From NCBI GenBank assembly GCA_039587755.1, contig JBDHBD010000021.1:8027-72026 (forward strand): a DNA stretch of 64,000 bases, given 5' to 3'. This document shows positions 17,548 to 36,362 of the stretch, in pieces. Numbering within the stretch: position 1 is the first letter of the stretch; each line of letters begins with the position of its first letter. The notes under the pieces are model-generated. The model had not been told where the DNA came from. It was given only the letters and a program-made list of their open reading frames with translations, and searched no databases. Origin of the DNA: Gemmatimonadota bacterium (GTDB taxonomy: Bacteria; Gemmatimonadota; Gemmatimonadetes; Palauibacterales; Palauibacteraceae). The position numbers and the translations under genes are program-made.

Positions 17548-17918
17548 CCCGTTCTCCTCGCCCGGTTTGCCGGCGTTTGGCCGTGTCTCGAAGGGTAAAC
17601 ATAGGGCACGATCGGGACCACGGCGCGGTACGGCGCAGAACGCGAGTTGAAGCGGCCGTTAGCCTATACAAATAAACAACTTACGAGGCCTCTGCGAACC
17701 ATCGATGCGGCCTGTGGACCCATGGGTTGGGGTAGAATGACACAGAGTAAGCGGCTCGCTGGGACACTCAGGCGATGGCTGGTGCTCCATCCCCCGAGGC
17801 AGATCGTGAACCGGGGCGTTTTGTCTCGTTTCCACGCGCTTTCCACAGTTCCATGGCCGTTGCAGCCGCGTGGAACGGCGACGAGCGGGTCGGAAGGCCG
17901 GGCGCTACGTTGTCGCCC

Positions 17919-18878
17919 ATGGACTTTCTGGGAATGTGCTGGGACGCGGCCGAGAGAATCCGTGAGAGGGTGCGCGAGACCCCAGTCGAGCCGTCGCCCC
18001 TCCTCAGCGAGCGGACCGGCGCCCGAGTCCATCTCAAACTCGAGAACTACCAGCTCACGGGCTCCTTCAAGCTGCGGGGAGCGATGAACGCGATGTGGTC
18101 TCTCGATGAGCCGAGCCGGGCCCGCGGCGTGGTGGCCGCCTCGTCGGGGAATCACGGCGCGGCCGTCGCCTGCGCGGCGCGCTCGGCGGGTTGCCCCACC
18201 CGCGTCTTCGTACCCGAGGGCTCGGCCCCCTCGAAGCTGGAGGCGATTGGCGCGTACGGCGCGGAGATTCGCGTCGTGGGGGAGGATTGCCTGCTAGCGG
18301 AGCAGGCCGCGCGTCAACACGCGACGGAGCACGCGATGGCGTACCTGTCCCCGTACAACGACGAACGGGTGGTGGCCGGTCAGGGCACGATCGGGGTGGA
18401 GCTGGAGAGCCAGCTCCCGCGCATCGATGCCGTGTGCGCCTCAATGGGGGGTGGAGGACTCATCTCCGGGATCGGCGGCTATCTGAAGTCGCTGCGGCCC
18501 GAGACGGAAGTGCTGGCGTGCTCTCCTGCCAATTCCTGTGTGATGCATGCCTCGCTCGAGGCGGGGTGCATCCTGGAACTCCCGTCGGAGCCCACCCTGT
18601 CGGACGGAACGGCGGGCGGGGTCGAAGCGGACTCGATCACCTTCGAGCTGTGCCGTGAGATCATCGACCAGTCCCTCCTCGTCTCGGAGGAGGAGATCGC
18701 AGCCGCCATGCGGTTGGTGCTGCATCACCATCACATGCTCGTCGAGGGGGCGGCCGGGGTGGCAGTGGCCGGTTTCCTCAAGGCATCTGGCGAAGCGGAT
18801 CGGTGGCGCGACCGCGACGTGGTGATTGTGCTGTGCGGAGCCAACGTCGATCCCGACGTGCTGAAGGGGATTCTCTAA
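17919..18878 (+). CDS. PLP-dependent threonine/serine dehydratase (fold-type II)
   Basis: PLP-lysine motif …TGSFKLRGA… and a glycine-rich loop SSGNHG. Start uncertain: 17775, 17853 and 17919 are all in frame. Confidence 0.7.
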   Translation: MDFLGMCWDAAERIRERVRETPVEPSPLLSERTGARVHLKLENYQLTGSFKLRGAMNAMWSLDEPSRARGVVAASSGNHGAAVACAARSAGCPTRVFVPEGSAPSKLEAIGAYGAEIRVVGEDCLLAEQAARQHATEHAMAYLSPYNDERVVAGQGTIGVELESQLPRIDAVCASMGGGGLISGIGGYLKSLRPETEVLACSPANSCVMHASLEAGCILELPSEPTLSDGTAGGVEADSITFELCREIIDQSLLVSEEEIAAAMRLVLHHHHMLVEGAAGVAVAGFLKASGEADRWRDRDVVIVLCGANVDPDVLKGIL

Positions 18879-18892
18879 GGCTGCGACGACGC

Positions 18893-21800
18893 CTACACGG
18901 GCACGAGTTCGGGTCGCGGCTCGCCCCCTCGCGGTTCGTCTCCTCGCGGCTCATCACCCCGCGGCTTCCCGGCCGGCGGCTCCCCCGGGAGTGCCTCGCC
19001 GGCCTCGCCTCCCGTCTCACCCGCTCCCACGCTCTCACCGAGCTCCTTGGGCTGGCGGCTGAAGTGACGCAGAAGGAAGGCCTCCAGATCGTCCAGTAGC
19101 GAGTGCATGACCGGCAGCAACACCAGCGTGAGGAAGGTCGCGAAGGCGAGGCCCGAGATGACCGCGATCGCCATCGGGCCCCACCAGGCCGCCTGCATCC
19201 CACCCCAGTAGAAATCGGGGTTCAGCCGCGTGTAGAAGCCGTTGAAATCGAAATTGAGCCCAATCGCCAGGGGCACGAGCCCCATGATCGTGGTGATCGC
19301 GGTGAGCGTGACCGGCCGATAACGGGTCAGGCCTCCACGCACCAGCGACTCGCGGGCCTCGATGCCATCGCGTTCCCTCAGCACGTGGATATAGTCCACA
19401 AGCACGATGGCGTTGTTGACCACCACGCCGGCCAGGCTGATCACCCCTACCCCACTCATGATCACCCCGAAAGGCATGCGGAACAGCAGCAACCCGAGCA
19501 AGACACCGATCGTCGAGAGGAGCACCGTGCTCAGGATGAGCACGGGCTTGAGCACAGAATCGAACTGGGAGACGAGGATGAAGCCGATCAGGAAGACGGC
19601 CATCAGGAACGCGCCGAACAGGAAGTCCTGCGACTCCTGCTGCTCCTCCTGTTCGCCCGTGTACTCCATCCGGTAGCCGGCCGGAAGCATTTCGGCGAAG
19701 CCGGCCAGCACCTGCTTTACCTCGGCAAGCACCGCGTTCGCGTTGTAGGACGCGCGCACATCCGACGAGACGGTGGCCATCCGCTTCAGGTCCTTGCGGT
19801 TCACACCGCTGAACCCCTCGTCGACCCTCCAGGTCGCCACCGAGGAAAGGGGCACCTGGTTCTCGAACTCGTTCGTGACCGTGAGATCCGCCAGCGCGCT
19901 CAGATCGCGCCGGTAGCGCTCAGCCAGCCGGACGACGATATCGTATTCCTCCTCGCCCTCCCTGTATTCCGACGCTTCCGTCCCGTTGATCGCGCTGCGC
20001 ACCGTGAAGCCGATGTCCATGGTGCTCAGGTCGAACAGAGCGGCCTTCTCACGATCGACCTCCACCCGCAGCTCGGGACGCGCATCGGCGAGATCGCTCT
20101 CCAGACCATCCAGCTTGACGGCCACCGGCGAGTTCGAGATCACGTCGATCGCCTCATCGGACAGCCTCTGAAGCGTCTCGGCGGCCTCACCCGAGATCTC
20201 GATGTTCACCGGTAGCCCGGTGGGCGGACCCATCGAGGGCTGCTGTACCGTGAACGTGGCCCCCGCCACGTCCCGACCGACTCGGGCTCGCATCCGCTCT
20301 ACGGTCGCGATCCCGTCGGACTCCCGGTCCTGGTAGTCCACGAAAGTGACCGCCACCGTCGCTAGATGGCTCCCGGACTGGCCCTCTCCGAACACTCCAG
20401 CGCTCGAGCCCGTGGTCGCCACGACGGATTCAAAGTCCTCGCGGCCCCCGATGATCCGCAGCTCTTCTTCGACCTCACGCACGATGCGGTCGGTGACATC
20501 GACCCGGGTCCCCGTCGGGGTCTCGATCTGGACCCATACCGTCTCGGGTGGTACGTCCTCGGGGAAGAACTCGATTCCGGCGTTGAGGGCGCCGAACGCC
20601 GCCAGAGAGAATACGAGCAGGGCCGCCACTCCGCCCATCACTCGCCCACGGTGCTGGATGCACCAGCGGAGGGACCGCTCGTACAGCCGCAGCGTCGCGG
20701 GAAGGCTCGTGTGTTGGAACCAGTGCGCGATCGGCACGAGCACCTGCCGGTGCAGATAGAACAACCCGACGCCGGTGAGCGTCAGGAGAACGGCGGCCAC
20801 AGGCTCCCGCACCAGTAAGACCAGGAACAGCACGCCGGCCACGCCCCCCAGAGCCATCTTGGTCTCACGCGTGAAGACCATGCGCGGCTCGCCCTCGGTG
20901 CGCATGAACAGAGACGTGAGGGTCGGGTTGATGACCAGCGCCACGAACAGTGAGGAGCTGAGTGTGATGATGAGCGTCTTGGGCAGGTAGGCCATAAACT
21001 CGCCCGTGATCCCCGGCCACAGCAGCATGGGCGCGAAGGCGGCCAGCGTGGTGGCCGTCGCGGCGATCACGGGGGGCGCGACCTCGGCCGTTGCGAGCTT
21101 GGACGCCTCTTTCGCGCCAAAGCCCTCCTCGCGGAAGCGGAAGATGTTCTCGACGATCACGATAGCGTTGTCGACCAGCATCCCCAGCGCGAGGATCAGC
21201 GAGAACAGCACAACCATGTTCATCGTCATCCCGAACAGCTGGATGACGGCGAACGAGATCAGCATCGAGAGTGGAATCGCCACCCCCACGAACGAGGCGT
21301 TCGTGACCCCGAGCGCGAACAGGAGGACGGCCACCACCAGGATAAGGCCCGAGATGATGTTGTTCTCGAGGCTCCCCACCATCTGGCGGACGTACTCGGC
21401 CTGGTCGGATGTGATCTCGACGACAGTGGTGGGCGGAAAGATCGGCTGCATCTCTTCGATCACAGCCTTTACGCCGTCGGACGTCTCGATGATGTTCTCC
21501 CCCGTGCGCTTGCTCACGCTGAGGGTGACCACGGCGTTTCCGTTCAGGCGGGCGTAACTCTCGCGGTCCTTGAACCCGAAGTCGACCGTCGCCACGTCGC
21601 GCACGTAGACTGGTCGACCGCCGCGGACGGCAACCACGATGTCCTCGATCGGGCGGGTCTGCTCGAACTCGCCGGGGACGCGGACCAGGTACTTCACATC
21701 GCCGACGTCGATCGTGCCGCCGGGCACGGTGATGTTCTCCTCCGCGATCGCATCGATCACGTCGTCGAACGACACGTCGTAGAACTTGAGCCGCGCCAAG

Positions 21801-22426
21801 TCGACATCGACCTGCACTTCGCGCTCCAGACCACCCGAGAGCGTCACCTCCAGCACGCTCGGGATCTGCTCGATCTCGTCCTGGACGTCTTCGGCGAGCT
21901 GCTTCAGCCGCACGAGGCTGTACTCGCCGGACACGTTCACTTGCAGGATCGGGAACTCGGACAGGTTGAACTCAACCACGGCCGGCTCTTCCGCGGCCTC
22001 CGGGAGCTCCGGTTTCGCAATGTCCACCTTCTCGCGAACCAGCTGGAGCGCCTCCGTCATATCCATCCCGGCTTCGAATTCGACGGAGATTCTCGAGAAC
22101 CCCTCCATGGAGCTGGAGAGGATCTCCTTCACGTCGGCGATCCGGTTGAGCTCCTCCTCGATCGGCCGCGTGATGAGGGTCTCGATGTCCTCGGGGGCGA
22201 CACCCGAATACGCGGTGTTCACGGCTATGAACGGGACGGTGATGTCCGGCGAGGCCTCCTTGGGCACCTGGAGGTAGGAGATCAGCCCCCAGATGATGAC
22301 GATCGTCGTCATCACCAGGACGCTCGTCGGGTGGTCTACCGCGAAGGAGGTGAGCCAGAACTGGCGGTACTGCTTGCCCTCGGGATGCTTCTCGCCGCGT
22401 CCGTCGGAACCGCCGGGCTCGGTCAC
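18893..22426 (-). CDS. RND (AcrB/HAE1-type) efflux transporter permease with low-complexity C-terminal tail
   Basis: 1177 aa with 12 predicted TM helices and two large periplasmic loops, typical AcrB/CzcA architecture. The C-terminal ~60 aa are a Gly/Glu/Pro tail containing (PRGDE)n repeats. Confidence 0.9.
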   Translation of the reverse strand: MTEPGGSDGRGEKHPEGKQYRQFWLTSFAVDHPTSVLVMTTIVIIWGLISYLQVPKEASPDITVPFIAVNTAYSGVAPEDIETLITRPIEEELNRIADVKEILSSSMEGFSRISVEFEAGMDMTEALQLVREKVDIAKPELPEAAEEPAVVEFNLSEFPILQVNVSGEYSLVRLKQLAEDVQDEIEQIPSVLEVTLSGGLEREVQVDVDLARLKFYDVSFDDVIDAIAEENITVPGGTIDVGDVKYLVRVPGEFEQTRPIEDIVVAVRGGRPVYVRDVATVDFGFKDRESYARLNGNAVVTLSVSKRTGENIIETSDGVKAVIEEMQPIFPPTTVVEITSDQAEYVRQMVGSLENNIISGLILVVAVLLFALGVTNASFVGVAIPLSMLISFAVIQLFGMTMNMVVLFSLILALGMLVDNAIVIVENIFRFREEGFGAKEASKLATAEVAPPVIAATATTLAAFAPMLLWPGITGEFMAYLPKTLIITLSSSLFVALVINPTLTSLFMRTEGEPRMVFTRETKMALGGVAGVLFLVLLVREPVAAVLLTLTGVGLFYLHRQVLVPIAHWFQHTSLPATLRLYERSLRWCIQHRGRVMGGVAALLVFSLAAFGALNAGIEFFPEDVPPETVWVQIETPTGTRVDVTDRIVREVEEELRIIGGREDFESVVATTGSSAGVFGEGQSGSHLATVAVTFVDYQDRESDGIATVERMRARVGRDVAGATFTVQQPSMGPPTGLPVNIEISGEAAETLQRLSDEAIDVISNSPVAVKLDGLESDLADARPELRVEVDREKAALFDLSTMDIGFTVRSAINGTEASEYREGEEEYDIVVRLAERYRRDLSALADLTVTNEFENQVPLSSVATWRVDEGFSGVNRKDLKRMATVSSDVRASYNANAVLAEVKQVLAGFAEMLPAGYRMEYTGEQEEQQESQDFLFGAFLMAVFLIGFILVSQFDSVLKPVLILSTVLLSTIGVLLGLLLFRMPFGVIMSGVGVISLAGVVVNNAIVLVDYIHVLRERDGIEARESLVRGGLTRYRPVTLTAITTIMGLVPLAIGLNFDFNGFYTRLNPDFYWGGMQAAWWGPMAIAVISGLAFATFLTLVLLPVMHSLLDDLEAFLLRHFSRQPKELGESVGAGETGGEAGEALPGEPPAGKPRGDEPRGDEPRGGEPRPELVPV

Positions 22427-23643
22427 GACGCGTCTCCCGGATCGGTTTCCCCGGCCTCGGCGGACCCGACGATCCGCAGCCGGTTCCCCGGGTCCACCAT
22501 CTGATGCCCGACGACGATCAGCTCATCGCCCGGCTCAAGGCCCTGCTCGATCACCACCTCGTCCTCGAAGGAAGGCCCGAGCCGGACGGTGCGCGACTCC
22601 GCAACCAGCCCGCCGTCGCGCTCCACCGCGACGAACACCTCGTAACCGAACTCGGTGCGCAGCACTACGTCCTGCGGCACGACGATCACGTTTTCCAGTC
22701 GCTGGGTGGCCACCTCGACGTTGGCCACCATCTGCGGCTTGACCACGCGTTCAGGGTTCGCAAGCACGATCTCGATCGGAAAGGTGCGGCTGGATACCTC
22801 AACGGCGGCGCCCACGTAGCCGATCCGGCCCTCAAAGGCCCGGCTTGCCAGCACGTCCAGGGTCACGCGGGCCTGGCCCCCGCTCTTCACGAAGGGTCCG
22901 AAGCGCTCTGGCACGCCACCCACCACTTTGAGACGATCGACCTCGATGACGCGGGCAACCGGGGTCCCCGGCACCACCATCTCGCCGGCGTCCACGAACC
23001 GCTGATCAAAGATACCGGAGATCGGCGCCCGCAGGACGGTGCGAGCGAGGCGGGCGTCCAGATTCTGGAGACGGGCCGTCGCAGCCTCCGAATCGTACTT
23101 GGCCTCCAAGAAAGCGATCTCCGACCCGATCTCCTCGTCCTCCCACAGCTGGCGCTGGCGCTCGAAACGCTCGGCGGCCAGGTCGGCCAGCGCCCGGGCT
23201 TCCTTCACCTGTGCCGCCAGCACGCGATCGTCGATCTTGGCGATCGGCTGGCCGGCCCGTACCCCACTGCCCTTGGGCACGTAGAAACGCTCGATCGCGC
23301 CGCTCTCCTCGGCGCTCACCACAACGTCGTTGAACGCCTCCACCGCGCCGGTAATGCTCACGAAAGTCGTGAAGTCCGTCGTCTCTACCGTGCGTGTCTC
23401 CACGTTCACGACCTGCACGAACTCGTTGGAGCGGTTGGGTGCGGGGTTCGAGCGGGCGTCGGGGTCGGAATTGCCCGCTTCGCTCCCCTCTCCGGCGGAG
23501 GGATTGCACGCAGCCGCTGCCAATCCCGCACTGAGGGCGGCCGCCATTGCGAGCACAGCTACGAAGCTCCCGTGCGGCGAGCGGCCAGCGCGAGGCCTTT
23601 GGATGTCGGACCCGTGGGTCCGCAGCTGTCTTCTATAGTTCAC
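22423..23643 (-). CDS. RND efflux periplasmic adaptor (membrane fusion protein, HlyD family), lipoprotein
   Basis: Lipobox LAAAAC, coiled-coil and beta-barrel MFP pattern; its stop overlaps the RND start by 4 nt. Confidence 0.85.
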   Translation of the reverse strand: MNYRRQLRTHGSDIQRPRAGRSPHGSFVAVLAMAAALSAGLAAAACNPSAGEGSEAGNSDPDARSNPAPNRSNEFVQVVNVETRTVETTDFTTFVSITGAVEAFNDVVVSAEESGAIERFYVPKGSGVRAGQPIAKIDDRVLAAQVKEARALADLAAERFERQRQLWEDEEIGSEIAFLEAKYDSEAATARLQNLDARLARTVLRAPISGIFDQRFVDAGEMVVPGTPVARVIEVDRLKVVGGVPERFGPFVKSGGQARVTLDVLASRAFEGRIGYVGAAVEVSSRTFPIEIVLANPERVVKPQMVANVEVATQRLENVIVVPQDVVLRTEFGYEVFVAVERDGGLVAESRTVRLGPSFEDEVVIEQGLEPGDELIVVGHQMVDPGNRLRIVGSAEAGETDPGDAS

Positions 23644-23654
23644 GGTTCACCCGT

Positions 23655-23717
23655 CTATACGTTCGCTATACGTCCGCTGTGCGTTTGTAATCCCCTGTGC
23701 GTTCGTAGATACGTTCA
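23655..23717. repeat. five tandem copies of an ~11-bp direct repeat TRTRCGTYYG in the tolC-MFP spacer
   Basis: tatacgttcgc / tatacgtccgc / tgtgcgtttgt / tgtgcgttcgt / agatacgttcac, read directly in the 78-bp intercistronic gap. Confidence 0.45.
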
Positions 23718-23721
23718 CGTA

Positions 23722-25197
23722 TCATTCGTCGCCTTCGATCGACTCGGCCGGCAGCGGCAGCTCGGCCACCGGCGGATCGACCATCGGCACCACGCCGATC
23801 GCCAGATCCAGTGCGGCCTGGGCGTTCAAGAAATCGTATACTGCCTGGGCGTAGTTCAGCTCCGACTGACGGACCGCTAGCTCGGCGTCGGTCACCTCCA
23901 GCCGCGAGCTTGTCCCCGCAAGATACTGCGCGGTGACGATCTCGAACCCACGCTGCGCCTCCGCCACCGCCTGGCGCTGCGTTTCCGCCCGCGCGCGTGC
24001 CTCGCGCAGATCTTCTGTCGCGGTCCGAATCGCAGCTCGCAGCCTCTGCTCTAAATCCATCAGACGGGTGTCCGCCTTGCGCAGGTCCGTCTGTCGCTGG
24101 TCGATGCGGTTCAGGCGACTGAAGCCCGAGAACAACGGGACTTCGACTTGTACGCCGACCGCGGTCGCTGTGGTCCGCTGGGTGGAGTTCTCGCCGAAGA
24201 AATTGAGCGACCCGTTCTCTTGCGCGATGAGGCTGAAGTTGAAGAAGGCGGAGACCCGCGGCATGAGCTCGGCGCGCTCAAGCTTCACCCGGGCGGATTC
24301 CACATCGCGCTGCAACTGCGCCTGCCTCACATCGGAGCGACGGCGCAGACCGATCTCCAGCAGACGCTCGAAGGTCGCCGTTTCAGCTTCCGAATACCCG
24401 ACGAACTCCAGCAAATCCAAGTTCTCGGCCCCGTTATCTCCCCCCAGGTCCACCGTGTAGAGCTGACCCCGCGCTCCCACCCGCCGGACTTCGTCCATCC
24501 CCATCTCAAGGCTCAGTTCGCGCTCGGTTTCCGCGATGTCGTTCGCGTTTCGCCGCAGGTTGGGCTGCAAGTTGGCGAGCTGCACCTCCAGGCGGAGCAC
24601 GTCGTAGGCGCCCGCCAACCCGGCCCGGTTCAGCGCACGGGTCTCCTCCAGCGTCTGCTCGACCCGGCGGATGCTGTTCTCGGTCACCCGCAGCTGCTCG
24701 CGCGCCAGCAACACATCGTAGTAGGCGCGCCGGATCGCCGTCACGGCGGTCTGCGCCTGGCCGCGGACGACCTCGGACTGGAGCGTCTGGACGCGGCCCG
24801 CCGCTCCGACGCCGACGAACACGCGACCGTCGAACAGAGTCTGGGTCGCTTCGAGAGTCGCCGTCCACTGGTTGTCGGCCCCAAACCGAACCGGAATCAG
24901 GTCGTCGGGACCAGCCTCCGGATCGAAGATGATCGCCGGCAGGAACGCCTCGGGAACCGTCAGGTTCCGTTGAAGCGACAGAGTCCCGTCCACTTCGGGC
25001 CACAACCCGCCGTACGCCTCGCTCACCAGCTGCTCGGTCCGTTCCAGCTCGTACTCCTGGATACGGAGCTCCCGGTTCGCACGAAGCCCTGCGGCCACCG
25101 CCTCCTCGAGGGAATAGCTGCTCTCCTGGGCGGACAGACTCCCGGCCATTGCGCCGATCGCTACGAATCCCAACAGCGCCCATCGCATGTACGTCAC
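23722..25197 (-). CDS. TolC-family outer membrane efflux protein
   Basis: Signal peptide, two repeated halves and coiled-coil-rich OEP pattern; first gene of the RND tripartite operon. Confidence 0.8.
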   Translation of the reverse strand: MTYMRWALLGFVAIGAMAGSLSAQESSYSLEEAVAAGLRANRELRIQEYELERTEQLVSEAYGGLWPEVDGTLSLQRNLTVPEAFLPAIIFDPEAGPDDLIPVRFGADNQWTATLEATQTLFDGRVFVGVGAAGRVQTLQSEVVRGQAQTAVTAIRRAYYDVLLAREQLRVTENSIRRVEQTLEETRALNRAGLAGAYDVLRLEVQLANLQPNLRRNANDIAETERELSLEMGMDEVRRVGARGQLYTVDLGGDNGAENLDLLEFVGYSEAETATFERLLEIGLRRRSDVRQAQLQRDVESARVKLERAELMPRVSAFFNFSLIAQENGSLNFFGENSTQRTTATAVGVQVEVPLFSGFSRLNRIDQRQTDLRKADTRLMDLEQRLRAAIRTATEDLREARARAETQRQAVAEAQRGFEIVTAQYLAGTSSRLEVTDAELAVRQSELNYAQAVYDFLNAQAALDLAIGVVPMVDPPVAELPLPAESIEGDE

Positions 25198-25483: not shown

Positions 25484-26674
25484 TCAGAACGACTGCGACC
25501 AGGCGCGGGGTTTGATTTCGCTGAAGCCGGTCAGGGGTGCTTGCGCTGCGAGCGCCTCGTCCTGCCATACGGAGCCGGAGGAACCGACATTCAGGTTCCT
25601 GGCGGTGATTCCTCCGTAGACGGTGGCGCCACCCTCGACTACGAGGTCATCGTTCGGGGCGTAGATAACGGCGTGAACGTGGGTTGCGGCCTTCGCGATC
25701 ATCCAGGTGTCGGTGGCACCGCCGCAGCCGTAGATGATCGCGTCGCCGGCATAACCACTCCCGTGATCCCAGTTGAACTTGGAAGAGCTCCGGATCGTGA
25801 GCGGGCCGCTCACGTAGATCTCGACCTGGTCACCGGGGGCAACGGAGATCGATTTGGAATTGATAAACACGTCGCTGAACAGGTAGGTGCCGCCCGGCAG
25901 AGTCATATCGGACCCCGGGATGAACGAGGTGTACGAGCCGGGAGGACAGGGCTCGGGGTCGTACGTCAGGGGGGGTGCGCTGGAGGTCACTGTGCCCGTC
26001 ACGGTTCCGTTGACAGTCACCGTACCCGCCGCCGTCGCATCGCCCCAGATCTGCGAGTTCTTGTTCGCGACGTCGATGTTGCCGTTGGAGTACACCTGGG
26101 CGTTTTTATAGGTATTCGCCGGGTGGAACGGCCCCTCCCTCGAATCGTAGCTGCCGATCTTCATATTGCCGCTTGCCAGCAGGTAGTTCTTCGCGTGGAA
26201 TCCGGGCTTGGGGAGTGATGTTCCACCCTCCCCGAACACCAAGCGTAGCTCCGCCCGGCCACCGAACAGCCCTCCACCCGCGCCGACAGAGGTGGCGTAG
26301 TACAGCTCCTTCCCCGTCCCGCTGTCGACCCGCTGGATCGAGCCCCTGTAACGGGCGGTGCCCGACAGCATCGTCCAGCCCACAATCACGGAGTCCCCGG
26401 GCGCGAGCCCGTCGGTCAGGGAATCCGCTTGCGCCACCAGGGCCCGCAAGCCTGACTCGGCGGCGAAGAAGCTCTCGTTCCACTCGACCGCCGCCCGCGC
26501 ATCCCCACGCTGTACCTGCACGCTTCTCAGCGACGCGGCCGCCAGCGCGCCCAGGATCACGAAGGCCACGATCGCCCACACGAGGACGTAGCCGCCCTCG
26601 TCGGCCAGCACGACCCTCAGCCGCCTCGGACGTGTATGATCGTCTTCAGCGAATCGACTCGCGTGCTTCCCCAT
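25484..26674 (-). CDS. GspK/PilX-like minor pseudopilin
   Basis: N-terminal TM segment (VLVWAIVAFVILGALAAASL) followed by a large Gly/Thr-rich domain. Last gene of the H-I-J-K order. ATG 26674 with GGGAG RBS. Confidence 0.5.
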   Translation of the reverse strand: MGKHASRFAEDDHTRPRRLRVVLADEGGYVLVWAIVAFVILGALAAASLRSVQVQRGDARAAVEWNESFFAAESGLRALVAQADSLTDGLAPGDSVIVGWTMLSGTARYRGSIQRVDSGTGKELYYATSVGAGGGLFGGRAELRLVFGEGGTSLPKPGFHAKNYLLASGNMKIGSYDSREGPFHPANTYKNAQVYSNGNIDVANKNSQIWGDATAAGTVTVNGTVTGTVTSSAPPLTYDPEPCPPGSYTSFIPGSDMTLPGGTYLFSDVFINSKSISVAPGDQVEIYVSGPLTIRSSSKFNWDHGSGYAGDAIIYGCGGATDTWMIAKAATHVHAVIYAPNDDLVVEGGATVYGGITARNLNVGSSGSVWQDEALAAQAPLTGFSEIKPRAWSQSF

Positions 26675-27495
26675 GGATCTCCCCTCTCCCCACGCAGTCC
26701 GACACTGATGGCTCGCACATCGGCCGCCGTGGAGGTTGCGTTCCCGCCTTCGTCCAGATACTGAAGGCGGAGTCCGTCTTGGCCGGGCGACAGCAGTGGC
26801 CCTACCACCCGCTCCCAGCTCCCGGAGCCCGCCTGTCGCTGCAGGAACCACTCACCGCCGGACTGCCGCAGCGCGTAAGTCGTCCGCTCGAACGCGACCA
26901 CTGGCCCGCCGACGCGGATGCCGGTCGTGTCTCCGACCACCGTAACCTTGTGGGGCCCCGAGTACGTGGCACCCCATGCGCACTTGTACGAGCTGCCGGC
27001 CACCGTCGAGATCGACTGGATCGCCATCGTTCGCCAGGCGGACGCGTCGACCATGAACATGAGCAGGCTGTCGGAGCGGGCCGTGTTGAAGTCCCCTGCG
27101 GCGTTGGTGATCGTGTAGGTGGCCGGGTCGGCTCCGTCCGTGTTGCACTGTATCCCCGTTCCCACTACTCCCCGGAAGGCAATCGAGTCCTCCGTCATCG
27201 CGTACAGGTCACCGTCGGTGGGCGACAGCGGGCGCAGCTCGGAGGTCACCATCGTGGCCGCGGTCGTCAGGTTCTGTCGGACCCGGGCGTATTCCTTCTG
27301 ACGAAAGTGATCCCGCTGCTGCGTCATGATGACAGAGACGATGGCGCCGACCACGATTCCCGAAAAGGTGAGGTATATCACCATCTCGAGCAGCGTGAAT
27401 CCCGCCGTGTGGCTGCGCCGAGGCAGCTGGCGCCCCTGTCTCGCTATTTGCACCCGCATCGCCCGAGTCACCCTTCCCCGCTCGCGTCGCTTCAC
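26617..27495 (-). CDS. GspJ/PilW-like minor pseudopilin (prepilin-type N-terminal methylation domain)
   Basis: …AGFTLLEMVIYLTFSGIVVGAI… prepilin motif; GTG start overlaps the stop of the upstream gene. Confidence 0.55.
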   Translation of the reverse strand: MKRRERGRVTRAMRVQIARQGRQLPRRSHTAGFTLLEMVIYLTFSGIVVGAIVSVIMTQQRDHFRQKEYARVRQNLTTAATMVTSELRPLSPTDGDLYAMTEDSIAFRGVVGTGIQCNTDGADPATYTITNAAGDFNTARSDSLLMFMVDASAWRTMAIQSISTVAGSSYKCAWGATYSGPHKVTVVGDTTGIRVGGPVVAFERTTYALRQSGGEWFLQRQAGSGSWERVVGPLLSPGQDGLRLQYLDEGGNATSTAADVRAISVGLRGERGDPWGSTRVDSLKTIIHVRGG

Positions 27496-27860
27496 TCGGT
27501 GAGAAAAAGGAGCACGGTGTCCCTCTTGGCACCCAGCCCCGGACGCCGGGCCGTGATCACCACCTGCTTTGGGTTCGAGCCGCTCACCGTCCAGGTCATA
27601 GGAAAACCATACATGTAGCCTGACCCTGTCTTAACATTGCTGTAGCCCGCTGCCATCAGCTGCTCTGTCTGGGCCTGGACAGCGCCCCAGTACCTGGTTT
27701 CCCGGTTGGCCGACCCGAGCGAGCTCCTGGCCGCCGTTCCGGTCGTGAGAACAGCGAGCACCGCAGTACCGAACAGGAGCACGCCGACCATGACCTCGAC
27801 GGCCGACACCCCCGCCTGGCCGCGGCGAGCACGCCAGTTCTTTCTGCCCAACTTTTTCAT
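27492..27860 (-). CDS. GspI/PilV-like minor pseudopilin
   Basis: 122 aa with prepilin-like N-terminus (GVSAVEVMVGVLLFGTAVLAV); its start overlaps the stop of the upstream gene. Confidence 0.5.
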   Translation of the reverse strand: MKKLGRKNWRARRGQAGVSAVEVMVGVLLFGTAVLAVLTTGTAARSSLGSANRETRYWGAVQAQTEQLMAAGYSNVKTGSGYMYGFPMTWTVSGSNPKQVVITARRPGLGAKRDTVLLFLTE

Positions 27861-28327
27861 TTCAGCAACATTCCGGCCGAGCTGAAGCGCACGGTTCGCG
27901 TGATGTTGTTATTGCTCAACGTGATCGTCGCATCGGGCGCCTCGCACGACCCTGCCTGGGTTGGCAATCCGCGGCCATCGAAGCAAAGCACGGCCCGATC
28001 GAAGCTGAACGTCATGTAGTCGTACGAGCGGGCGAACACGTCGACGGGCGTTACCCCGTCCAGGGTCGTGTCGACCGCGACTGTCCAGGCTGATTGGCTG
28101 GCCCCGCTCGTGAACGTGAGCGTGGCCGTGCGTCCGTAGCGACGTGCCCAGGATCGTGCGGCGGCGTGGGCCGCCTCGACTTCGAGTGCAGCGCGGCGTA
28201 CCTGATTACGGCGGTTCGCCTGCACTGCGGGAGGACCCACGGCGGCGAGCGCGATCGCCATCAGGACGACGACCGTCAGAAGCTCGACCATCGTGAAGCC
28301 ACGGTCGCTACCAGCGCTCGCTCTCAT
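27857..28327 (-). CDS. GspH/FimT-like minor pseudopilin
   Basis: GFTMVELLTVVVLMAIALAAV prepilin N-terminus; 156 aa. Confidence 0.6.
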   Translation of the reverse strand: MRASAGSDRGFTMVELLTVVVLMAIALAAVGPPAVQANRRNQVRRAALEVEAAHAAARSWARRYGRTATLTFTSGASQSAWTVAVDTTLDGVTPVDVFARSYDYMTFSFDRAVLCFDGRGLPTQAGSCEAPDATITLSNNNITRTVRFSSAGMLLK

Positions 28328-28583
28328 CCACCCACTCGCTGCATTGGCTCTTTTGATATCCGTTGCGGATTGGGCCGCTGCCGGCCCTTATGCACTTTAC
28401 GCCACCTTGTGAGTAGCAAGATCCCGGCCGGCCATCTTGCGGGCCGAAGGTGGGTGATAGCACTCGAACGTGAGGGGACAAAAGCAGTTACGAGATCGAA
28501 ACCGGGGGGGACGCGGGGCCTGTGGTGCGAATTGTCGCGAAACGCGACACCCATTCGCGGCTCGCGACTCCGATCGAGGGCCA

Positions 28584-30722
28584 TCAGGCGACGGCGAAGC
28601 GCGCTTCCTCGAGCTCGTTCGCGCCCTCTGCCTCTTCCCTAATGAGGGCGATGAACTCCTCTGCGATCCGCGGATCGAAGTGCGTTCCGGCCTTCTCTCC
28701 CATCAGGCGCAGGGCGTCACCGAAAGAAAGGGCGCTCCGATACGGACGGTCGGAGATCAGGGCGTCGAACACGTCCACGACGGCCAGGATCCGGGCCAGC
28801 AGGGGAATGTCCTCGCCACGGAGCGCGCCGGGATAGCCAGTCCCGTCCCACCGCTCGTGGTGGTGAAGCACAATGGGTATCACGTGGTGGAGCGCGTCGA
28901 TCGGGGCGAGAATGTCTGCTCCGGTCTGCGGGTGCGCGCTTATCAGCTTCCAATCCTCGTCGGTCAGGGGATCGGTCTTGTCCAGCACGTGGCTCGGGAT
29001 CCCGATCTTGCCGATGTCGTGGAGCAGGGCCGCTCGGTGTAGCGTCTCGAGGTCGGGCTCGGCTACGCCGACACGCCGAGCGAGGGCGAGGGCACGGCGG
29101 GTGACCCGTTCCGTGTGTCCGGCCGTCCAGTTCGATTTCGCGTCGATGCTGCGACCCAGCGCGCGGATCGTCCCCCAATTCAGCCTGTCCAGCCGCTCCA
29201 TCAGCCGTGCGTTGCTGAGTGCGACTGCCACCTGCTCGACCAGGCGTCGTGCATGGCCGAGCGGTGCGCGAACCTCGACACTCGGGACGTGCGCGACCAC
29301 GGCCAAGCCGGCCGGGATGCCGTCCAGAAGGAGGGGGAGCAGCGCCGCGCTCTCCGACTCTTCCTGAAACTCCGGGAGCGCGAGGTAGGAGCGCTTATCG
29401 GGCAATGGCACCACGATACCATCCGGATGTTGCCCCAGCTCTGCCAGATCTTCCCGCGTGATGCTCACTTCCTTGGCCGAGCGGGGGCGCGATCCAGCCT
29501 CGGAAACGAGCACTCGGGCATCCTCGCTGCTCAAGCGAGGCAGAAAGACGAACGCCGCGGCGCGGAAGCCCAGACCCTCCACCACACCACCCAGGAAGCT
29601 GCGGCTGACCTCGTCAGTCGACATTGCACCAAGCACTTGGCGGTCGATCTCCCCGATCGCTTCCAGGGTCCCGAACTGGTTCGCGAGGTTACTGGTCATC
29701 TGATTGAACGATTCCGCCAGATCCGCGAACTCGTCCTTGCTCTCGATTGTCACCTCTGTCGCCAGATCGCCGCTGGAGACCCGCTTGGTTCCCTCGGTTA
29801 GCAATCGGATGGGCTCGAGGCTCTTGCGCGCCTCCATGCTCGTGAGGAGGAACGCCAGCACGAGAGCGGCCGCCCCCACGAGCAGCAGCAACCCACGCGC
29901 CTGGCTCAAGACGGCGGTTGTCGGCTCCGTCGTCAGCACGTGCCAGGAGGGCGAGGCATACTCGAAGCCGAGGAAGACCTCACGGCGGTGTGTCGTGTAG
30001 GGCTCTCCATCCAGGCTCCAAGTCAGCACTGAGGTGCCGGACTGGTTGGATCCGGCAAAAAGCACTTCGAAGAGCTCGTCGAACATGAGGTGGTCACAGC
30101 GGATAGGGCGCATCTGCGCGTTCAGCACACATTGACCGGTGGGTGTGACTGTGGGCGCTGTCGCTCTATCCGCCCACAGGAAATCGGACCGGACCCGAGC
30201 CCACAGGATCCGTGGGCGGCGAGACTGGGGATCGAGAGCCGTCCCAAGCCATACGGCTGCCTCGTTTCCGCCCTCCCCTATCGGGATCACCACGAGGCTT
30301 GGACGTTCCTCCCTCAAATGTTCCAGCTGCCGCCGCGAGGGAACGGGCGTCCCGGTCGAATCCGCGGCCGAATCCTCTGAACGCCCACTGTCCGACTCCG
30401 GCAGATCGGAGATGCGGAACCCGGTCAGGGTGATCGGCTGGATGTCGTGAGCCGCAGAGGGCAGCCATCCGGTTTGTTGCCAGCGCTCTTTCACAATCTC
30501 GAGCTCTTCAGTGGCAACCTGGAGACGGTGGAGGACGATGAGACCCACACCCTTGCCGTCTTGGGCCAGGTGCTCTTCATCTTCTTCGGCCCAACGATCG
30601 GACATTTGGCAATAGGTGAACAGGATGGCGGCCGCGGCCGGCAACAATGTTCCCGCCAGGAAGCGTCCCAGAGCTCGTTGGGCGAGCCTGGTCTGCAGAA
30701 AAGTGCCCTTGACCTTGAACAT
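28584..30722 (-). CDS. membrane-anchored sensor with HAMP and HD-GYP domains (c-di-GMP phosphodiesterase)
   Basis: N-terminal TM, large periplasmic region, second TM, HAMP, and C-terminal HD-GYP motifs (…LLHDIGK…HHERWDGTGYPG…). Confidence 0.8.
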   Translation of the reverse strand: MFKVKGTFLQTRLAQRALGRFLAGTLLPAAAAILFTYCQMSDRWAEEDEEHLAQDGKGVGLIVLHRLQVATEELEIVKERWQQTGWLPSAAHDIQPITLTGFRISDLPESDSGRSEDSAADSTGTPVPSRRQLEHLREERPSLVVIPIGEGGNEAAVWLGTALDPQSRRPRILWARVRSDFLWADRATAPTVTPTGQCVLNAQMRPIRCDHLMFDELFEVLFAGSNQSGTSVLTWSLDGEPYTTHRREVFLGFEYASPSWHVLTTEPTTAVLSQARGLLLLVGAAALVLAFLLTSMEARKSLEPIRLLTEGTKRVSSGDLATEVTIESKDEFADLAESFNQMTSNLANQFGTLEAIGEIDRQVLGAMSTDEVSRSFLGGVVEGLGFRAAAFVFLPRLSSEDARVLVSEAGSRPRSAKEVSITREDLAELGQHPDGIVVPLPDKRSYLALPEFQEESESAALLPLLLDGIPAGLAVVAHVPSVEVRAPLGHARRLVEQVAVALSNARLMERLDRLNWGTIRALGRSIDAKSNWTAGHTERVTRRALALARRVGVAEPDLETLHRAALLHDIGKIGIPSHVLDKTDPLTDEDWKLISAHPQTGADILAPIDALHHVIPIVLHHHERWDGTGYPGALRGEDIPLLARILAVVDVFDALISDRPYRSALSFGDALRLMGEKAGTHFDPRIAEEFIALIREEAEGANELEEARFAVA

Positions 30723-30749
30723 GCCGCCTCGAGGCTGCCTCGAAATCGC

Positions 30750-31244
30750 CTAGTAGGCGCTAGCGGGTCCGACGAAAGCTCCGTCGTTCGCGCGGACCAC
30801 GTCATCCTTGCTCACACCAGCGCTGATGTTCGCCGAGGTCGCACCGTCGGGGCCGATGGAGTAGAGGTCGTAGTACGTGTTGAGCGGGTGGAGGAATCGG
30901 TCCTTTCGGGCATTGTTGACCGCCTCCGGTGTGGTGAACGGGAGATACCGGTACGACTGGTCCCAGGGATCGACAAACGAGCCCGCGCCGGCAGTCGCCA
31001 GGGTGGCCGGCAGCTCGTCGTTGGCCAGGATGTAGTCGTCGATCAGACTCTGCATCTCGAGGACGTCAGAGGTGGCCTGCTTCACTCTGCGGCTCTCGGC
31101 CACACGGTTCGATGTGCCGACCGCGATCGTCGCCAGGATGGCGACCAGCGTGAGCACGGACAGCAGCTCCACAATCGTGAAACCCGCGCTCCGCGCGCGC
31201 AGGTACGCGCTGAAACGCATTGAGCGAGCTGACTGCCTTACCAT
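30750..31244 (-). CDS. gspG: major pseudopilin, GspG-like (type II secretion / type IV pilin superfamily)
   Basis: Prepilin leader ending …SAG|FTIVELLSVLTLVAILATIAV with Glu at +5. C-terminal DPWDQSYRY…YDLYSIGPDGA resembles the GspG signature. Start could also be 31220. Confidence 0.6.
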   Translation of the reverse strand: MVRQSARSMRFSAYLRARSAGFTIVELLSVLTLVAILATIAVGTSNRVAESRRVKQATSDVLEMQSLIDDYILANDELPATLATAGAGSFVDPWDQSYRYLPFTTPEAVNNARKDRFLHPLNTYYDLYSIGPDGATSANISAGVSKDDVVRANDGAFVGPASAY

Positions 31245-31535: not shown

Positions 31536-32207
31536 TCAGCGGCGGGGGGGGTCAGGAGACAGCGTCCGCGCGCGGGTCGCACAATTGATCGGCCAGGCCC
31601 CGGCGGGGGCCATCGCGCTCCGTCTCCCCGCGCGGGCGACGAGCCCGGCCTGACCGACGAGACTGTCTTGCGCGTCGAACAGGGCGATGCCGATTCGAGC
31701 GCCGGGGATCGACCCCAGGATCCACAGGGTGTCGCTTCGCGTGTACCAACGCAGTGGCCCGACCTGAAACGCACGTTCGGCCCCCTCCGAACCCAAAGCT
31801 TCCCCAGTCGAAGTCGCCAAACCCTCCGTGTCATCCTGGGGCGCGAGCGCGACGACGCGGTAGGAGCCAAGGGGACGTCCCCAAGCATCGAGCGAGTCGA
31901 GCTGAAGCATGATCGCTTCCGGGAATTCGAACGCCGTCAGCAGCAGGTCCTGCGGCGCTTCCGAGCCGCGCAATGCGACCATGCGCTCGGCATCCCACGG
32001 CTCGACCTCGAGCTCATAGCAGCCCAGCAGCGCCCATGGCTCCAGATCGCGACTTGTGAGCGTGTCGTCCGAGTGCGGTGCGGACCGCGCCCGCAGGAGC
32101 ATCGCGGCCAACGTGACCGCGCTCAGGAAGGCGAGCGTGAGGAGCCAGCGGGCGGCGGCCATCCCCGGACGGCCATGGTAACGCGCGTGCCGCTTCCGGC
32201 TGCTCAC
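31536..32207 (-). CDS. hypothetical secreted protein
   Basis: Signal-peptide-like N-terminus (MAAARWLLTLAFLSAVTLAA; probable start 32162). Its start overlaps the stop of the upstream phytase-like gene. Confidence 0.35.
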   Translation of the reverse strand: MSSRKRHARYHGRPGMAAARWLLTLAFLSAVTLAAMLLRARSAPHSDDTLTSRDLEPWALLGCYELEVEPWDAERMVALRGSEAPQDLLLTAFEFPEAIMLQLDSLDAWGRPLGSYRVVALAPQDDTEGLATSTGEALGSEGAERAFQVGPLRWYTRSDTLWILGSIPGARIGIALFDAQDSLVGQAGLVARAGRRSAMAPAGAWPINCATRARTLSPDPPRR

Positions 32208-34754: not shown

Positions 34755-35477
34755 CTACACCACCTCGAAGGTGATGGGCTGCGAGAGCCACACGGCCGTC
34801 ACGCGGTCCCGGTTCATCGCCGGGGTGTAGCGCATCCCCTGGGCGACTTTCTGGGCGGCCTCATCCAGCGCCTCGTATCCGCTGGAGGTAGCGATCCGTG
34901 TCTGTGTCACCGAACCGTCGGTGTCGACGTAGATCCACAGCACCACCAAGCCCCCGATCCCTGCACTCTTCAGCGACGTCGGGTAGAGCCGCTGGAGCAA
35001 GCCAAGCGTCTCTTCCTTGTTCTTGAGCTTGGGGGCGACCGTGTAGGGGATGAACGCAGGGCGGTCGTCGGGGGTCGCCACATCGGGCGGCGGTCCCAGG
35101 TTCTCGACCGGGTTCTCCTCGAACGTCGTGGGGGCGATCGTGAGCTCCTCGTTCATCTCGACCGTTGCGACCCGCGGAGTGGCCGGTCGCGCGATCGCCT
35201 CCGGCGGCGGTGGCACCTCGACCGTCGGAGGGAGCTCGACGGCCGACATGGCTTCGCTCGCCGTCACCATATCGGCCACGCGGAAGCTCGGGACCACGCC
35301 GAACACCGCCATGTGAACGGCCACCGCGGCGGTCAGACCCACGCGAAACGTCGGCCAGAACGACTGCTTGAATTCCTCGTTGGCCGTGAGCGCCGGTTGC
35401 CTTCCGATCGCGAACGGGACCAGCCGGAACACCGGCAAACTGGTCGATCCGAGCCTGAACTTCGCTGCCATGATCAC
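34755..35477 (-). CDS. tonB: TonB-family energy transducer (C-terminal TonB domain), paralog A
   Basis: N-terminal TM, Pro-rich spacer (PPTVEVPPPPE) and a TonB C-terminal domain; GTG start. Confidence 0.7.
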   Translation of the reverse strand: MIMAAKFRLGSTSLPVFRLVPFAIGRQPALTANEEFKQSFWPTFRVGLTAAVAVHMAVFGVVPSFRVADMVTASEAMSAVELPPTVEVPPPPEAIARPATPRVATVEMNEELTIAPTTFEENPVENLGPPPDVATPDDRPAFIPYTVAPKLKNKEETLGLLQRLYPTSLKSAGIGGLVVLWIYVDTDGSVTQTRIATSSGYEALDEAAQKVAQGMRYTPAMNRDRVTAVWLSQPITFEVV

Positions 35478-35576
35478 CCCTCCTCCGATTATCGCTATCT
35501 ATGTCGAACCAGCGTCCGTGAGCGCGACGCCTACCCCTCTCGCAAGTTCACTGCTCCTATGACAACGTGAGTGGGG

Positions 35577-35589
35577 GAAACGTTGTTTC
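35577..35589. promoter_or_regulatory. GAAAC-N3-GTTTC palindrome upstream of tonB paralog A
   Basis: GGAAACGTTGTTTCAG, identical to the 16-mer upstream of paralog B; ~105 nt before the start codon. Confidence 0.45.
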
Positions 35590-35624
35590 AGGCGGGCGGT
35601 ACGGGCTGGCGTCAGGGTTCCCGC

Positions 35625-36362
35625 TCAGACGACCTCGAAGAAGATCGGCTGGGACAGCCACACCGCGGTGACCAGGTCGCGGTTCATCGCCGGCGTGAAG
35701 CGCATGCTCGCGGCGACACGCTGCGCGGCCTGATCCAACAGCACGTACCCGCTCGAGGTGTGGACCCGTGTCTCGCCCACGCGGCCGTCCGTGTCAACGA
35801 AGACCCACAACACGACCGTGCCGCCGACGCCGGCGCTCCTGAGGGAAGGCGGATACAGCCGCTCGAGGAGCGCGAGGGTCTCCTCCCTGTTCAGAAGCTT
35901 GGGGGCCGCCGTATAGGGGATGAACGGGGGACGGTCGTCCTCGTCCACGGTCACTTCGGGTGGAGGCCCGAGGCTCTCGATCGGGTTCTGCTCGAACGTG
36001 GTGGGGGCGATCGTCAGCTGCTCATCCACCGCGACTGTCGAGACGCGTGGGGTTGCGGGTCGTGCGATGCGCTCCGGCGGAGGCGGGACCTCGACGGACG
36101 GAGGCAGGTCGACGGCCGACATGGCTTCGCTGGCCCTCGCGATCTCCGCGATCTGGAAGCGTGGCACCAACCCGAAGACCGCCATGTGAAGTGCCACGGC
36201 CATGGTGAGCGTGCCGGCGAACGTGGGCCAGAACGTCCGTTTGAAGCGCTCGTTGGCCGTGGTTCCGTCCGGCTTCCCCAGGCTGCACGGCGCCAGGCGG
36301 AACACGGGAGGAGGTACGGGCCGAAACGCGACTCGGTGTCGCATCATCTTCGCCTCCGCCAT
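35625..36362 (-). CDS. tonB: TonB-family energy transducer, paralog B
   Basis: Same architecture and ~60% aa identity to paralog A over the C-terminal domain. Confidence 0.7.
   Translation of the reverse strand: MAEAKMMRHRVAFRPVPPPVFRLAPCSLGKPDGTTANERFKRTFWPTFAGTLTMAVALHMAVFGLVPRFQIAEIARASEAMSAVDLPPSVEVPPPPERIARPATPRVSTVAVDEQLTIAPTTFEQNPIESLGPPPEVTVDEDDRPPFIPYTAAPKLLNREETLALLERLYPPSLRSAGVGGTVVLWVFVDTDGRVGETRVHTSSGYVLLDQAAQRVAASMRFTPAMNRDLVTAVWLSQPIFFEVV

Follow-up and report, generated by a model that had tools for sequence, protein, structure and literature searches.

A conserved pilin–sensor gene pair with exchangeable output as a possible pilin-gated switch in c-di-GMP signalling

The 64-kb stretch of Gemmatimonadota DNA analysed here (64,000 nucleotides, hereafter the window) carries six open reading frames (ORFs) on the minus strand between 25484 and 31244, in the order of a GspG-like pilin, a membrane sensor and four minor-pilin-like genes, which we refer to as H-, V-, W- and X-like. 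This layout had been described in an earlier note made from the sequence alone, and both the ORFs and the sequence bear it out, as they do the 712-residue sensor with HAMP and HD-GYP domains (confirmed by Pfam, with every catalytic motif present). What the note had made of the layout, a pseudopilin operon split by a dedicated phosphodiesterase (PDE) of cyclic diguanylate (c-di-GMP), holds only in part. The pilin and sensor genes form a co-transcribed two-gene sensory module, and comparison of related loci indicates that the conserved unit is the pilin plus the input region of the sensor, with an output that can be swapped. Because the pilin and the input region stay constant while the output varies between HD-GYP, GGDEF-EAL and histidine kinase, we place the pilin on the input side: the sensor would read the membrane pool or assembly state of the pseudopilin and adjust c-di-GMP, a reading to which we give even weight. 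The broader proposal, that the pair is a widespread pilin-gated switch from filament assembly state to c-di-GMP synthesis, c-di-GMP breakdown or a phosphorelay, is offered more tentatively, as something short of an even chance.

The two genes and the parts of the sensor are located as follows.
30750..31220, minus strand: GspG-like prepilin, 156 residues from the ATG at 31220; an in-frame alternative ATG lies at 31244.
28584–30722, minus strand: HD-GYP sensor gene, 712 residues, two transmembrane (TM) segments, HAMP and HD-GYP domains.
30603..30722, minus strand: sensor residues 1–40, cytoplasmic tail and TM1 (alignments, conservation statistics, model helix 12–84).
29919..30602, minus strand: sensor residues 41–268, predicted periplasmic stalk helix and two PDC/Cache modules of dCache fold (structure model, Foldseek).
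29832..29918, minus strand: sensor residues 269–297, TM2 (model helix 269–296, conservation statistics).
29685..29831, minus strand: sensor residues 298–346, HAMP (Pfam PF00672, 1.4e-13).
29151..29684, minus strand: sensor residues 347–524, linker with a GAF-like region (alignment with GAF-bearing relatives).
28665..29150, minus strand: sensor residues 525–686, HD-GYP phosphodiesterase domain (Pfam HD_5, 2.9e-43; PDB sequence matches).

A scan of one genome per species found a relative of the pilin encoded in at least 582 species. The hosts include Gemmatimonadota, Burkholderiales, Gallionella, Steroidobacteraceae, Legionella londiniensis, Halopseudomonas, Desulfobacterales, Acidobacteriota, Planctomycetota, Methylomirabilales and Eisenbacteria; cultured hosts are Acidovorax soli, Curvibacter sp. 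PAE-UM, Piscinibacter caeni, Legionella londiniensis and Desulfosediminicola flagellatus. Eighty pilin loci were fetched, 79 of which could be assessed for the downstream gene, and the sensor family was identified with local hidden Markov models (HMMs) on these loci together with a phmmer search of the representative library. A sensor with a homologous N-terminal region lies directly downstream of the pilin in 72 of the 79 loci, which span at least eight phyla, and the gap between the two genes is mostly −56 to +30 nt (27 nt in the window). The remaining eight of the 80 comprise one locus that ends at the pilin, two with the sensor upstream on the opposite strand and five without a sensor. The pairing was also met from the sensor side: when four homologues of the sensor's N-terminal domain were sampled, a family pilin was found directly upstream in two (196 and 188 bits), and generic pilin-like genes, divergently placed, accompanied one. 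It is thus the pilin with its sensor that is conserved, not a pseudopilin operon into which a dedicated PDE gene has been inserted.

The contigs of six relatives were read individually. A sensor of the same architecture follows the pilin immediately in all six, and over their N-terminal 300 residues these proteins can be aligned with the window sensor. The build of the input region does not vary: cytoplasmic tail, TM1, a periplasmic domain of predicted dCache fold, TM2, HAMP and, in most cases, GAF. Their domains are listed by pilin.
P0010: adjacent sensor HAMP-GAF-HD-GYP.
P0026 (locus L003): HAMP-GAF-HisKA-HATPase-REC, followed by a separate REC-HD-GYP regulator.
P0028 and P0059: adjacent sensor HAMP-GAF-GGDEF-EAL.
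P0070: adjacent sensor HAMP-GAF-HisKA-HATPase.
P0060: HAMP-GGDEF, followed by a separate EAL gene.
The Pfam-annotated flanks of these contigs, up to 10 kb on each side, contain no GspC–F, GspL, GspM or GspD. Among 57 sensors annotated with Pfam, 31 carry HD-GYP, 21 GGDEF plus EAL and four HisKA/HATPase as output, so that c-di-GMP outputs account for 52 of the 57; HAMP is present in 56. The earlier note had proposed local control of secretion or pilus function by the PDE, and the variation of output among relatives argues against this as the conserved logic of the arrangement.

Two of the loci show further variants. In L003 (10001–14449, plus strand), the gene before the REC-HD-GYP regulator encodes a hybrid histidine kinase whose input region is that of the other sensors, and the HD-GYP output is reached via a phosphorelay rather than by fusion. 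In L011 (9368–10465, plus strand), two tandem pilin paralogues (147 and 205 bits with the family HMM) stand before one HAMP-GGDEF sensor and a separate EAL gene.

The constant input region escapes Pfam. No Pfam model matches sensor residues 1–297, and no Pfam Cache family is among the matches of the window sensor or of 57 relatives, so that the attempt to detect dCache by Pfam failed. In an AlphaFold2 model of the region, built on 84 sequences (pLDDT 88, pTM 0.83), TM1 and a stalk make up one long helix from residue 12 to 84, after which come two alpha/beta modules and another TM helix. Foldseek returned 83 PDB matches at E ≤ 1e-3 for this model, led by Mlp24 (6ioq, 6.6e-7) and followed by CtaA, PctA, Tlp3, HK1S-Z16 and KinD, and the top 50 are nearly all dCache or tandem-PDC sensor domains of chemoreceptors and kinases. 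When PDB sequences were searched with a profile, KinD alone was matched, marginally, which agrees with the dCache fold. On this modelling, the periplasmic region is firmly predicted to be a divergent dCache fold, with a stalk helix and two PDC modules between two TM segments, and the input region would define a dCache subfamily that has gone undetected.

The pattern of conservation within the input region bears on what it might sense. The cytoplasmic tail, with the family consensus FLRSRVARR, and TM1 form the best-conserved input stretch (Arg16 99%, Phe21 94%, Pro28 99%), and the near-invariant Pro28 lies within TM1. After the tail, TM1 and TM2, the next in conservation are Cys198, Cys209, Trp235 and Trp260 of the membrane-proximal Cache module. 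The membrane-distal module, which is usually the ligand-binding one, is the least conserved part of the input. That the most conserved parts are the tail, TM1 and TM2, and not the distal module, supports the placement of the pilin on the input side.

The pilin itself has a class III signal peptide, RARSAG|FTIVELL, with G−1, F+1 and E+5 all present, and carries the motifs DPWDQSYRY and YYDLYSIGPDG. It passes the Pfam cutoff for N_methyl (22.6 versus 21.2), and fails those for T2SSG (PF08334, 15.6 bits versus 21) and TIGR01710 (26.8 versus 88.85). Precomputed PF08334 hits exist for many of its relatives and are weak or faint wherever their strength is stated. The window pilin is identical to P0001, named 'general secretion pathway protein G' by the Joint Genome Institute (JGI). 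An AlphaFold2 model on 53 homologues (pLDDT 92) was compared with the PDB using Foldseek. The top seven matches are EpsG chains (4lw9, 3gn9) with probability 0.97–1.00 and TM-scores (TMt) of 0.50–0.60; PulG (5o2y, 1t92) and GspG of enterohaemorrhagic Escherichia coli (3g20) rank lower in the same list. By its predicted structure the protein is of GspG-type fold, yet it is no GspG equivalog. Furthermore, none of GspC–F, GspL, GspM and GspD is encoded in the window, which leaves the pilin outside any gsp operon there. For annotation this means that the label 'type II secretion system protein GspG' is probably wrong for hundreds of genes, whose products would not be components of a type II secretion system (T2SS).

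The homology search with the pilin gave 75 proteins, most of them 37–51% identical over the full length. The head-domain motifs DPWG.PY.Y, RKD..L.P.N.DYDLYS.G.DG and DD[IV][IV]RANDG are invariant in the family, and the G, T and E of the signal peptide are each at least 90% conserved, with G−1 and E+5 kept. Across phyla the pilin is 46–51% identical, versus 23–28% for the sensor input. Pilins exposed at the surface are rarely so well conserved, whereas a periplasmic pseudopilin, or a partner with a fixed interface, typically is. The pilin and sensor-input distance matrices are correlated (r = 0.69, Mantel p = 0.001).

Turning to the output, the window sensor is matched by Pfam HAMP (1.4e-13), HD_5 (2.9e-43) and HD (5.8e-21). 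Since the HD-GYP motifs GHTERV, HDIGK, HHERWDGTGYP and DVFDALISDRPYR are all intact, the domain is probably catalytically competent. Sequence matches in the PDB are V-cGAP3 (5z7c, 2.4e-48), PmGH (4mcw, 4e-39) and PA4781 (4r8z, 1.4e-29), with all the motifs aligned. We infer c-di-GMP as the substrate, which is favoured indirectly by the GGDEF-EAL outputs of the paralogous pairs. Pfam gives no GAF call in the window sensor, where the corresponding region aligns with GAF-bearing relatives; GAF is called in 17 of the 57 sensor relatives and also in the sensor next to P0010.

How would such a module work? We infer both the pilin–sensor contact and the direction of signalling, and the scheme would run in four steps. 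First, the prepilin peptidase of the host would cleave the pilin, which would then reside in the inner membrane. Second, in Gemmatimonadota the pilin would probably also polymerise to form a short fibre or pseudopilus, for which the H-, V-, W- and X-like proteins would be the primers and a type IV filament machine encoded elsewhere the builder. Third, TM1 and TM2, together with the membrane-proximal Cache module, would detect the pilin in the membrane, and the sensor would thus read whether the fibre is assembled or unassembled. Fourth, HAMP and GAF would relay the signal and c-di-GMP hydrolysis would be switched. Binding of the pilin to the TM helices is suggested indirectly, by the gene pairing and the conservation of TM1 and TM2. 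For the pilin-gated switch, the contact could join the Glu5-bearing helix of the pilin with the Arg-rich tail and the Pro-containing TM1 of the sensor; to name Glu5 and Arg15/16 as meeting at the cytoplasmic edge of TM1 is speculation.

Several points weigh against the sensor reading its pilin. The adjacency of the two genes and the correlation of their distances would follow from co-inheritance alone, and the sampling that started from the sensor covered only four homologues, one of which has no pilin at all. dCache domains typically bind small ligands. Because this is what the fold normally does, a chemical may be what the sensor detects, with the pilin as the target that it regulates. As to the substrate, the best sequence match among solved structures is V-cGAP3, a phosphodiesterase specific for 3'3'-cGAMP, which comes ahead of the c-di-GMP enzyme PmGH, and this leaves the substrate of the HD-GYP domain uncertain. 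Finally, the window encodes no assembly ATPase, platform protein, secretin or prepilin peptidase, so that polymerisation of the pilin is uncertain as well. The absence of GspD, GspE and GspF had already been stated by the earlier note and agrees with our Pfam scans, which detected none of GspD/E/F and PilB/C/Q/D among the 36 other sizeable ORFs of the window.

The four genes that follow the sensor in the window, and the gap before them, are located as follows.
28328..28583, no strand: intergenic gap of 256 nt between the sensor and the minor-pilin genes (sequence).
27857..28327, minus strand: GspH/FimT/FimU-like minor pilin, 156 residues, SDRG|FTMVELL, Pfam GspH.
27492..27860, minus strand: PilV/GspI-like small minor pilin, 122 residues, QAG|VSAVEV, sub-threshold matches.
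26617..27459, minus strand: PilW/GspJ-like minor pilin, about 280 residues, HTAG|FTLLEM; an alternative start is the GTG at 27495.
25484..26611 (or 26674), minus strand: PilX/GspK-like fourth protein, 375 residues in the JGI gene call, DUF7305.
The 256-nt gap may mark the minor-pilin genes as a separate transcription unit. Translational coupling, claimed previously for all of these genes, holds strictly at the H/V junction alone, where the V-like gene starts within the end of the H-like gene, the two sharing 4 nt (ATGA). At the other two junctions it depends on the choice of start codon: V and W either overlap or lie no more than 32 nt apart, and between W and X there is a 5-nt gap or a 58-nt overlap.

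The labels GspG/H/I/J/K in the earlier note fare unevenly. Besides the GspG-type fold of the pilin, the GspH label is backed by Pfam: the H-like protein scores 26.4 bits with GspH (PF12019, cutoff 21) and 25.3 with N_methyl, and so belongs to the GspH/FimT/FimU family, while it fails the GspH equivalog model TIGR01708 (31.6 versus 80). For the other three proteins, no match to T2SSI, T2SSJ or T2SSK at E ≤ 0.1 was obtained in Pfam or NCBIfam, and PilW and PilX models from the same collections match none of the minor-pilin proteins. The V-like protein has only sub-threshold matches to N_methyl (16.6) and PilV (TIGR02523, 13.8 versus 52.2), and the W-like protein only weak N_methyl and PpdC-type matches. 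The X-like protein has a hydrophobic N-terminus without Glu5, a C-terminal DUF7305 (1.7e-15), which is probably a beta-helix, and a weak match to a bactofilin-type repeat; its role as PilX/GspK is suggested by its position and N-terminus. Nothing informative was matched among PDB sequences by the H-, W- or X-like protein. The HMM support for pseudopilins is thus half in place, given the failure of T2SSG and TIGR01710 noted above, and by their sequences the four proteins would be a generic four-member priming set, assignable neither to the T2SS nor to type IV pili.

The surroundings of the pair differ markedly between phyla. Scanned for pilin motifs, 12 of the 80 loci have further pilin-like genes no more than 10 kb away, and nine of these 12 are from Gemmatimonadota. 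When the comparison is limited to loci flanked on either side by 5 kb or more, pilin-like neighbours are present in eight of 11 Gemmatimonadota loci versus two of 36 from other phyla. The link between the pair and a minor-pilin set, which the earlier note took as given, is therefore good for Gemmatimonadota, where the set is H-V-W-X, and fails in the other 34 of those 36 loci, where no further pilin gene lies within 10 kb. Three Gemmatimonadota loci, L013, L015 and L019, have genes orthologous to all four of the window's minor-pilin set (3.9e-54 to 2.4e-43 for the W-like proteins). With G and S standing for pilin and sensor, L013 has the order G-S-H-V-W-X, as in the window, L019 has H-V-W-X-G-S, and L015 (268–4483, plus strand) lacks a sensor, its G being separated from H-V-W-X by about 700 nt in which no ORF is credible. 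The HD-GYP gene is accordingly missing from the cluster in L015 and present in L013. The existence of three H-V-W-X arrangements, and of lone pairs elsewhere, leads us to regard the window layout, on these comparisons, as a lineage-specific neighbourhood, and not as an ancestral operon broken by insertion. In addition, the orthologues around the pair tie the pilin to a fibre-priming set, and suggest, at least for Gemmatimonadota, a fibre that H-V-W-X primes and that has the GspG-like pilin as its major subunit.

Some of these neighbourhoods have features of their own. L015 is the only 'unsplit' version seen; its ORF at 761–1225 was considered as a remnant of the sensor and rejected, as it is Arg/Gly-rich, looks spurious and has no match to the sensor HMM. 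In L013, a second sensor with an N-domain of the same family (16369–18816, plus strand; 3.8e-154, local HMM) abuts X, and two paralogous sensors therefore bracket the pilin cluster. In L009 (5954–19720) and L010, from an unidentified lineage, a pair of pilin and histidine kinase lies between two divergent minor-pilin-like clusters, with proteins of GspH, PpdB-like and N_methyl type, and a prepilin peptidase. This Peptidase_A24 is the only processing enzyme in the neighbourhoods seen. The six-gene order of the window recurs in two JGI metagenome contigs. Between L001 and L002 the W-like gene differs by an in-frame indel between samples: it is called as 232 residues in L001 (12551–13249) and 255 in L002 (5132–5899), and the distance from the end of V to the start of X is 812 nt in L001 versus 881 nt in L002 and the window, 69 nt less.

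With the neighbourhoods in hand, the alternatives can be weighed. The one that survives best, though we think it unlikely, keeps the direction of the earlier note: the HD-GYP domain would be a local c-di-GMP sink controlling a type II secretion or pilus machine, the dCache domain would sense an unrelated periplasmic chemical, and the pilus would be the output. The ligand-binding habit of dCache domains speaks for it, as do the full minor-pilin set beside the pair in the window, L013 and L019 and the prepilin peptidase near the pair in L009. Control of this kind has precedents in the pilus ATPases MshE and PilF, which are regulated by c-di-GMP (PMC4624765; PMC11731258). However, the output is not conserved, and its effects on c-di-GMP could be opposite, while the pilin and the input stay constant; the swapping of output domains beside a constant pilin is thus left unexplained. 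Moreover, 34 of 36 adequately flanked loci outside Gemmatimonadota have no other pilin gene within 10 kb, and nowhere in the input is conservation lower than in the distal Cache module, the one that binds ligands.

A further alternative, which we hold to be quite improbable, is that the pilin is never polymerised and serves as a membrane-anchored co-receptor subunit of the sensor, much as a periplasmic binding protein does with a kinase. Its GspG-like head may then bind Ca2+ or another ligand, and the minor pilins of Gemmatimonadota would serve a different system. The pair indeed stands alone in most phyla, its genes are tightly coupled, the head domain (46–51% identity across phyla, invariant motifs) is unusually conserved for a pilin, and L011 has two tandem pilin copies before a single sensor. 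Yet the prepilin cleavage site and Glu5, the latter important for filament assembly, are nearly invariant. The co-receptor model also finds it hard to explain, if the two are unrelated, why the pilin is linked to H-V-W-X in three arrangements, once without the sensor (L015), and why pilin-like neighbours are found in eight of 11 Gemmatimonadota loci as against two of 36 elsewhere. Adjacency without functional meaning, that is, an ordinary pseudopilin cluster beside an unrelated signalling gene, would be compatible with the window taken alone, where 256 nt part the sensor from the minor pilins, but it is extremely improbable given the pairing in 72 of 79 assessable loci from at least eight phyla, with frames overlapping or nearly abutting, and its recovery by sensor-first sampling.

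The GC content of the window is 65%, and this value, together with the closest relatives of its pilin and minor pilins, makes an origin in Gemmatimonadota probable. Between 25.0 and 32.0 kb no sigma-70-like promoter, terminator or Rfam match, c-di-GMP riboswitches included, was found. On the same strand, 286 nt downstream of the PilX-like gene, lies an efflux operon (18893–25197, minus strand) encoding TolC-like, membrane-fusion and AcrB-type resistance–nodulation–division (RND) proteins; it is also present in contig L001 and has no tie to the pilin genes in other loci. Some 315–365 nt upstream of the pilin is an ORF of 208–223 residues (31536–32207, minus strand). It was considered as a third member of the module and rejected, having no Pfam hit and no homologue in the 80 related loci. 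A phytase-like gene also lies upstream of the pilin. At 34755–36362 (minus strand), two neighbouring paralogues of about 240 residues, each with a C-terminal TonB_C, stand beside a CitMHS/TrkA_C transporter gene.

How type IV filaments report surface contact or their assembly state to c-di-GMP networks is an unresolved problem, and the known cases, PilA–PleC–PleD and PilY1/minor pilins–SadC, are indirect and genetically dispersed. If the sensor does read its pilin, an operon of two genes, for a pseudopilin and a c-di-GMP enzyme, would offer a compact and testable system. The pair is conserved from Gemmatimonadota to Burkholderiales, Legionella, Desulfobacterales and Acidobacteriota, cultured strains included. 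It would then represent a previously unrecognised class of mechanosensory or surface-sensing receptors, present in at least 582 species of many phyla.

Comparison with known systems shows which elements are familiar and which are not. At the level of domains, the output resembles PmGH, PA4781 and V-cGAP3, to whose HD-GYP domains it aligns at E values of 1e-29 to 1e-48 with metal-binding and GYP motifs present; the solved chains (369, 218 and 463 residues, respectively) are matched over these domains only. Those proteins are soluble or REC-linked, whereas the window enzyme sits in the membrane, with dCache, HAMP and a GAF-like region ahead of its catalytic domain, and has its gene next to that of a pilin. 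The input resembles the dCache_1 sensors Mlp24, PctA and KinD in its predicted long stalk helix and tandem PDC modules between two TM helices. It differs from them in being missed by the Pfam dCache models, and in its conservation, which is lowest in the distal module and highest in the tail, TM1 and TM2.

At the level of systems, the T2SS set of GspG and GspH-I-J-K shares with the window a GspG-type (here predicted) fold, a GspH-family protein and a make-up of one major and four minor pilins, of which the last has no Glu5. The differences are that the pilin fails the GspG HMM thresholds, T2SSI/J/K matches are absent, the protein in the K position has DUF7305, the window lacks gsp machinery, and a sensor gene follows G in nearly all relatives. 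In Pseudomonas aeruginosa, the PilS sensor genes adjoin the fimT/fimU-pilVWXY1E minor-pilin cluster; PilS crosses the membrane with six TM segments and acts on the transcription of pilA. The window sensor, by contrast, has two TM segments and a dCache fold, and its family has c-di-GMP outputs in 52 of 57 members. It would be like PilA–PilS–PilR autoregulation in that a major pilin is read by an inner-membrane sensor. P. aeruginosa PilA is reported to regulate PilS by intramembrane contacts (cited in PMC7196804; PMC6058289). The type IVa set FimU-PilV-PilW-PilX-PilY1 is similarly made of four priming genes and ends with a large protein, and a link between minor pilins, a membrane sensor and c-di-GMP-related behaviour is documented for it: minor pilins feed FimS–AlgR, and SadC signalling is also tied in (PMC5979040). 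Unlike that operon, the window has no PilY1 or PilE homologue, no PilW or PilX match and only a trace match to PilV, and its sensor is not FimS-like.

In function, the closest parallels are PilA–PilS and the surface-sensing pathway of Caulobacter crescentus, in which PilA binds the first TM helix that anchors PleC's periplasmic domain and raises c-di-GMP through PleD (PMC7196804). What is sensed there is the pilin pool of the membrane, and the pilin makes contact by its N-terminal helix. The window sensor likewise has two TM segments, a periplasmic domain and a probable c-di-GMP outcome, and here too a pilin would make the contact. In Caulobacter, however, the genes are unlinked, the pilin is a 59-residue Tad pilin, and the sensor is a histidine kinase acting via a separate diguanylate cyclase; here a pilin of GspG-type predicted fold is coupled to its sensor, which usually carries the c-di-GMP enzyme itself. 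In the literature searched, a pilin gene paired with a diguanylate cyclase, PDE or kinase sensor of this kind is not described, which does not prove that no description exists, and a 2022 census of c-di-GMP sensory inputs (PMC8846402) has no diguanylate cyclase or PDE paired with its own pilin. Papers on Leptospirillum, Acidithiobacillus and Ramlibacter were considered as possible descriptions of the pair and rejected, their content being unrelated. Thus, although pilin sensing itself is already known, what would be new is a pilin-sensing signal transduction that is hard-wired as an operon and feeds c-di-GMP enzymes directly.

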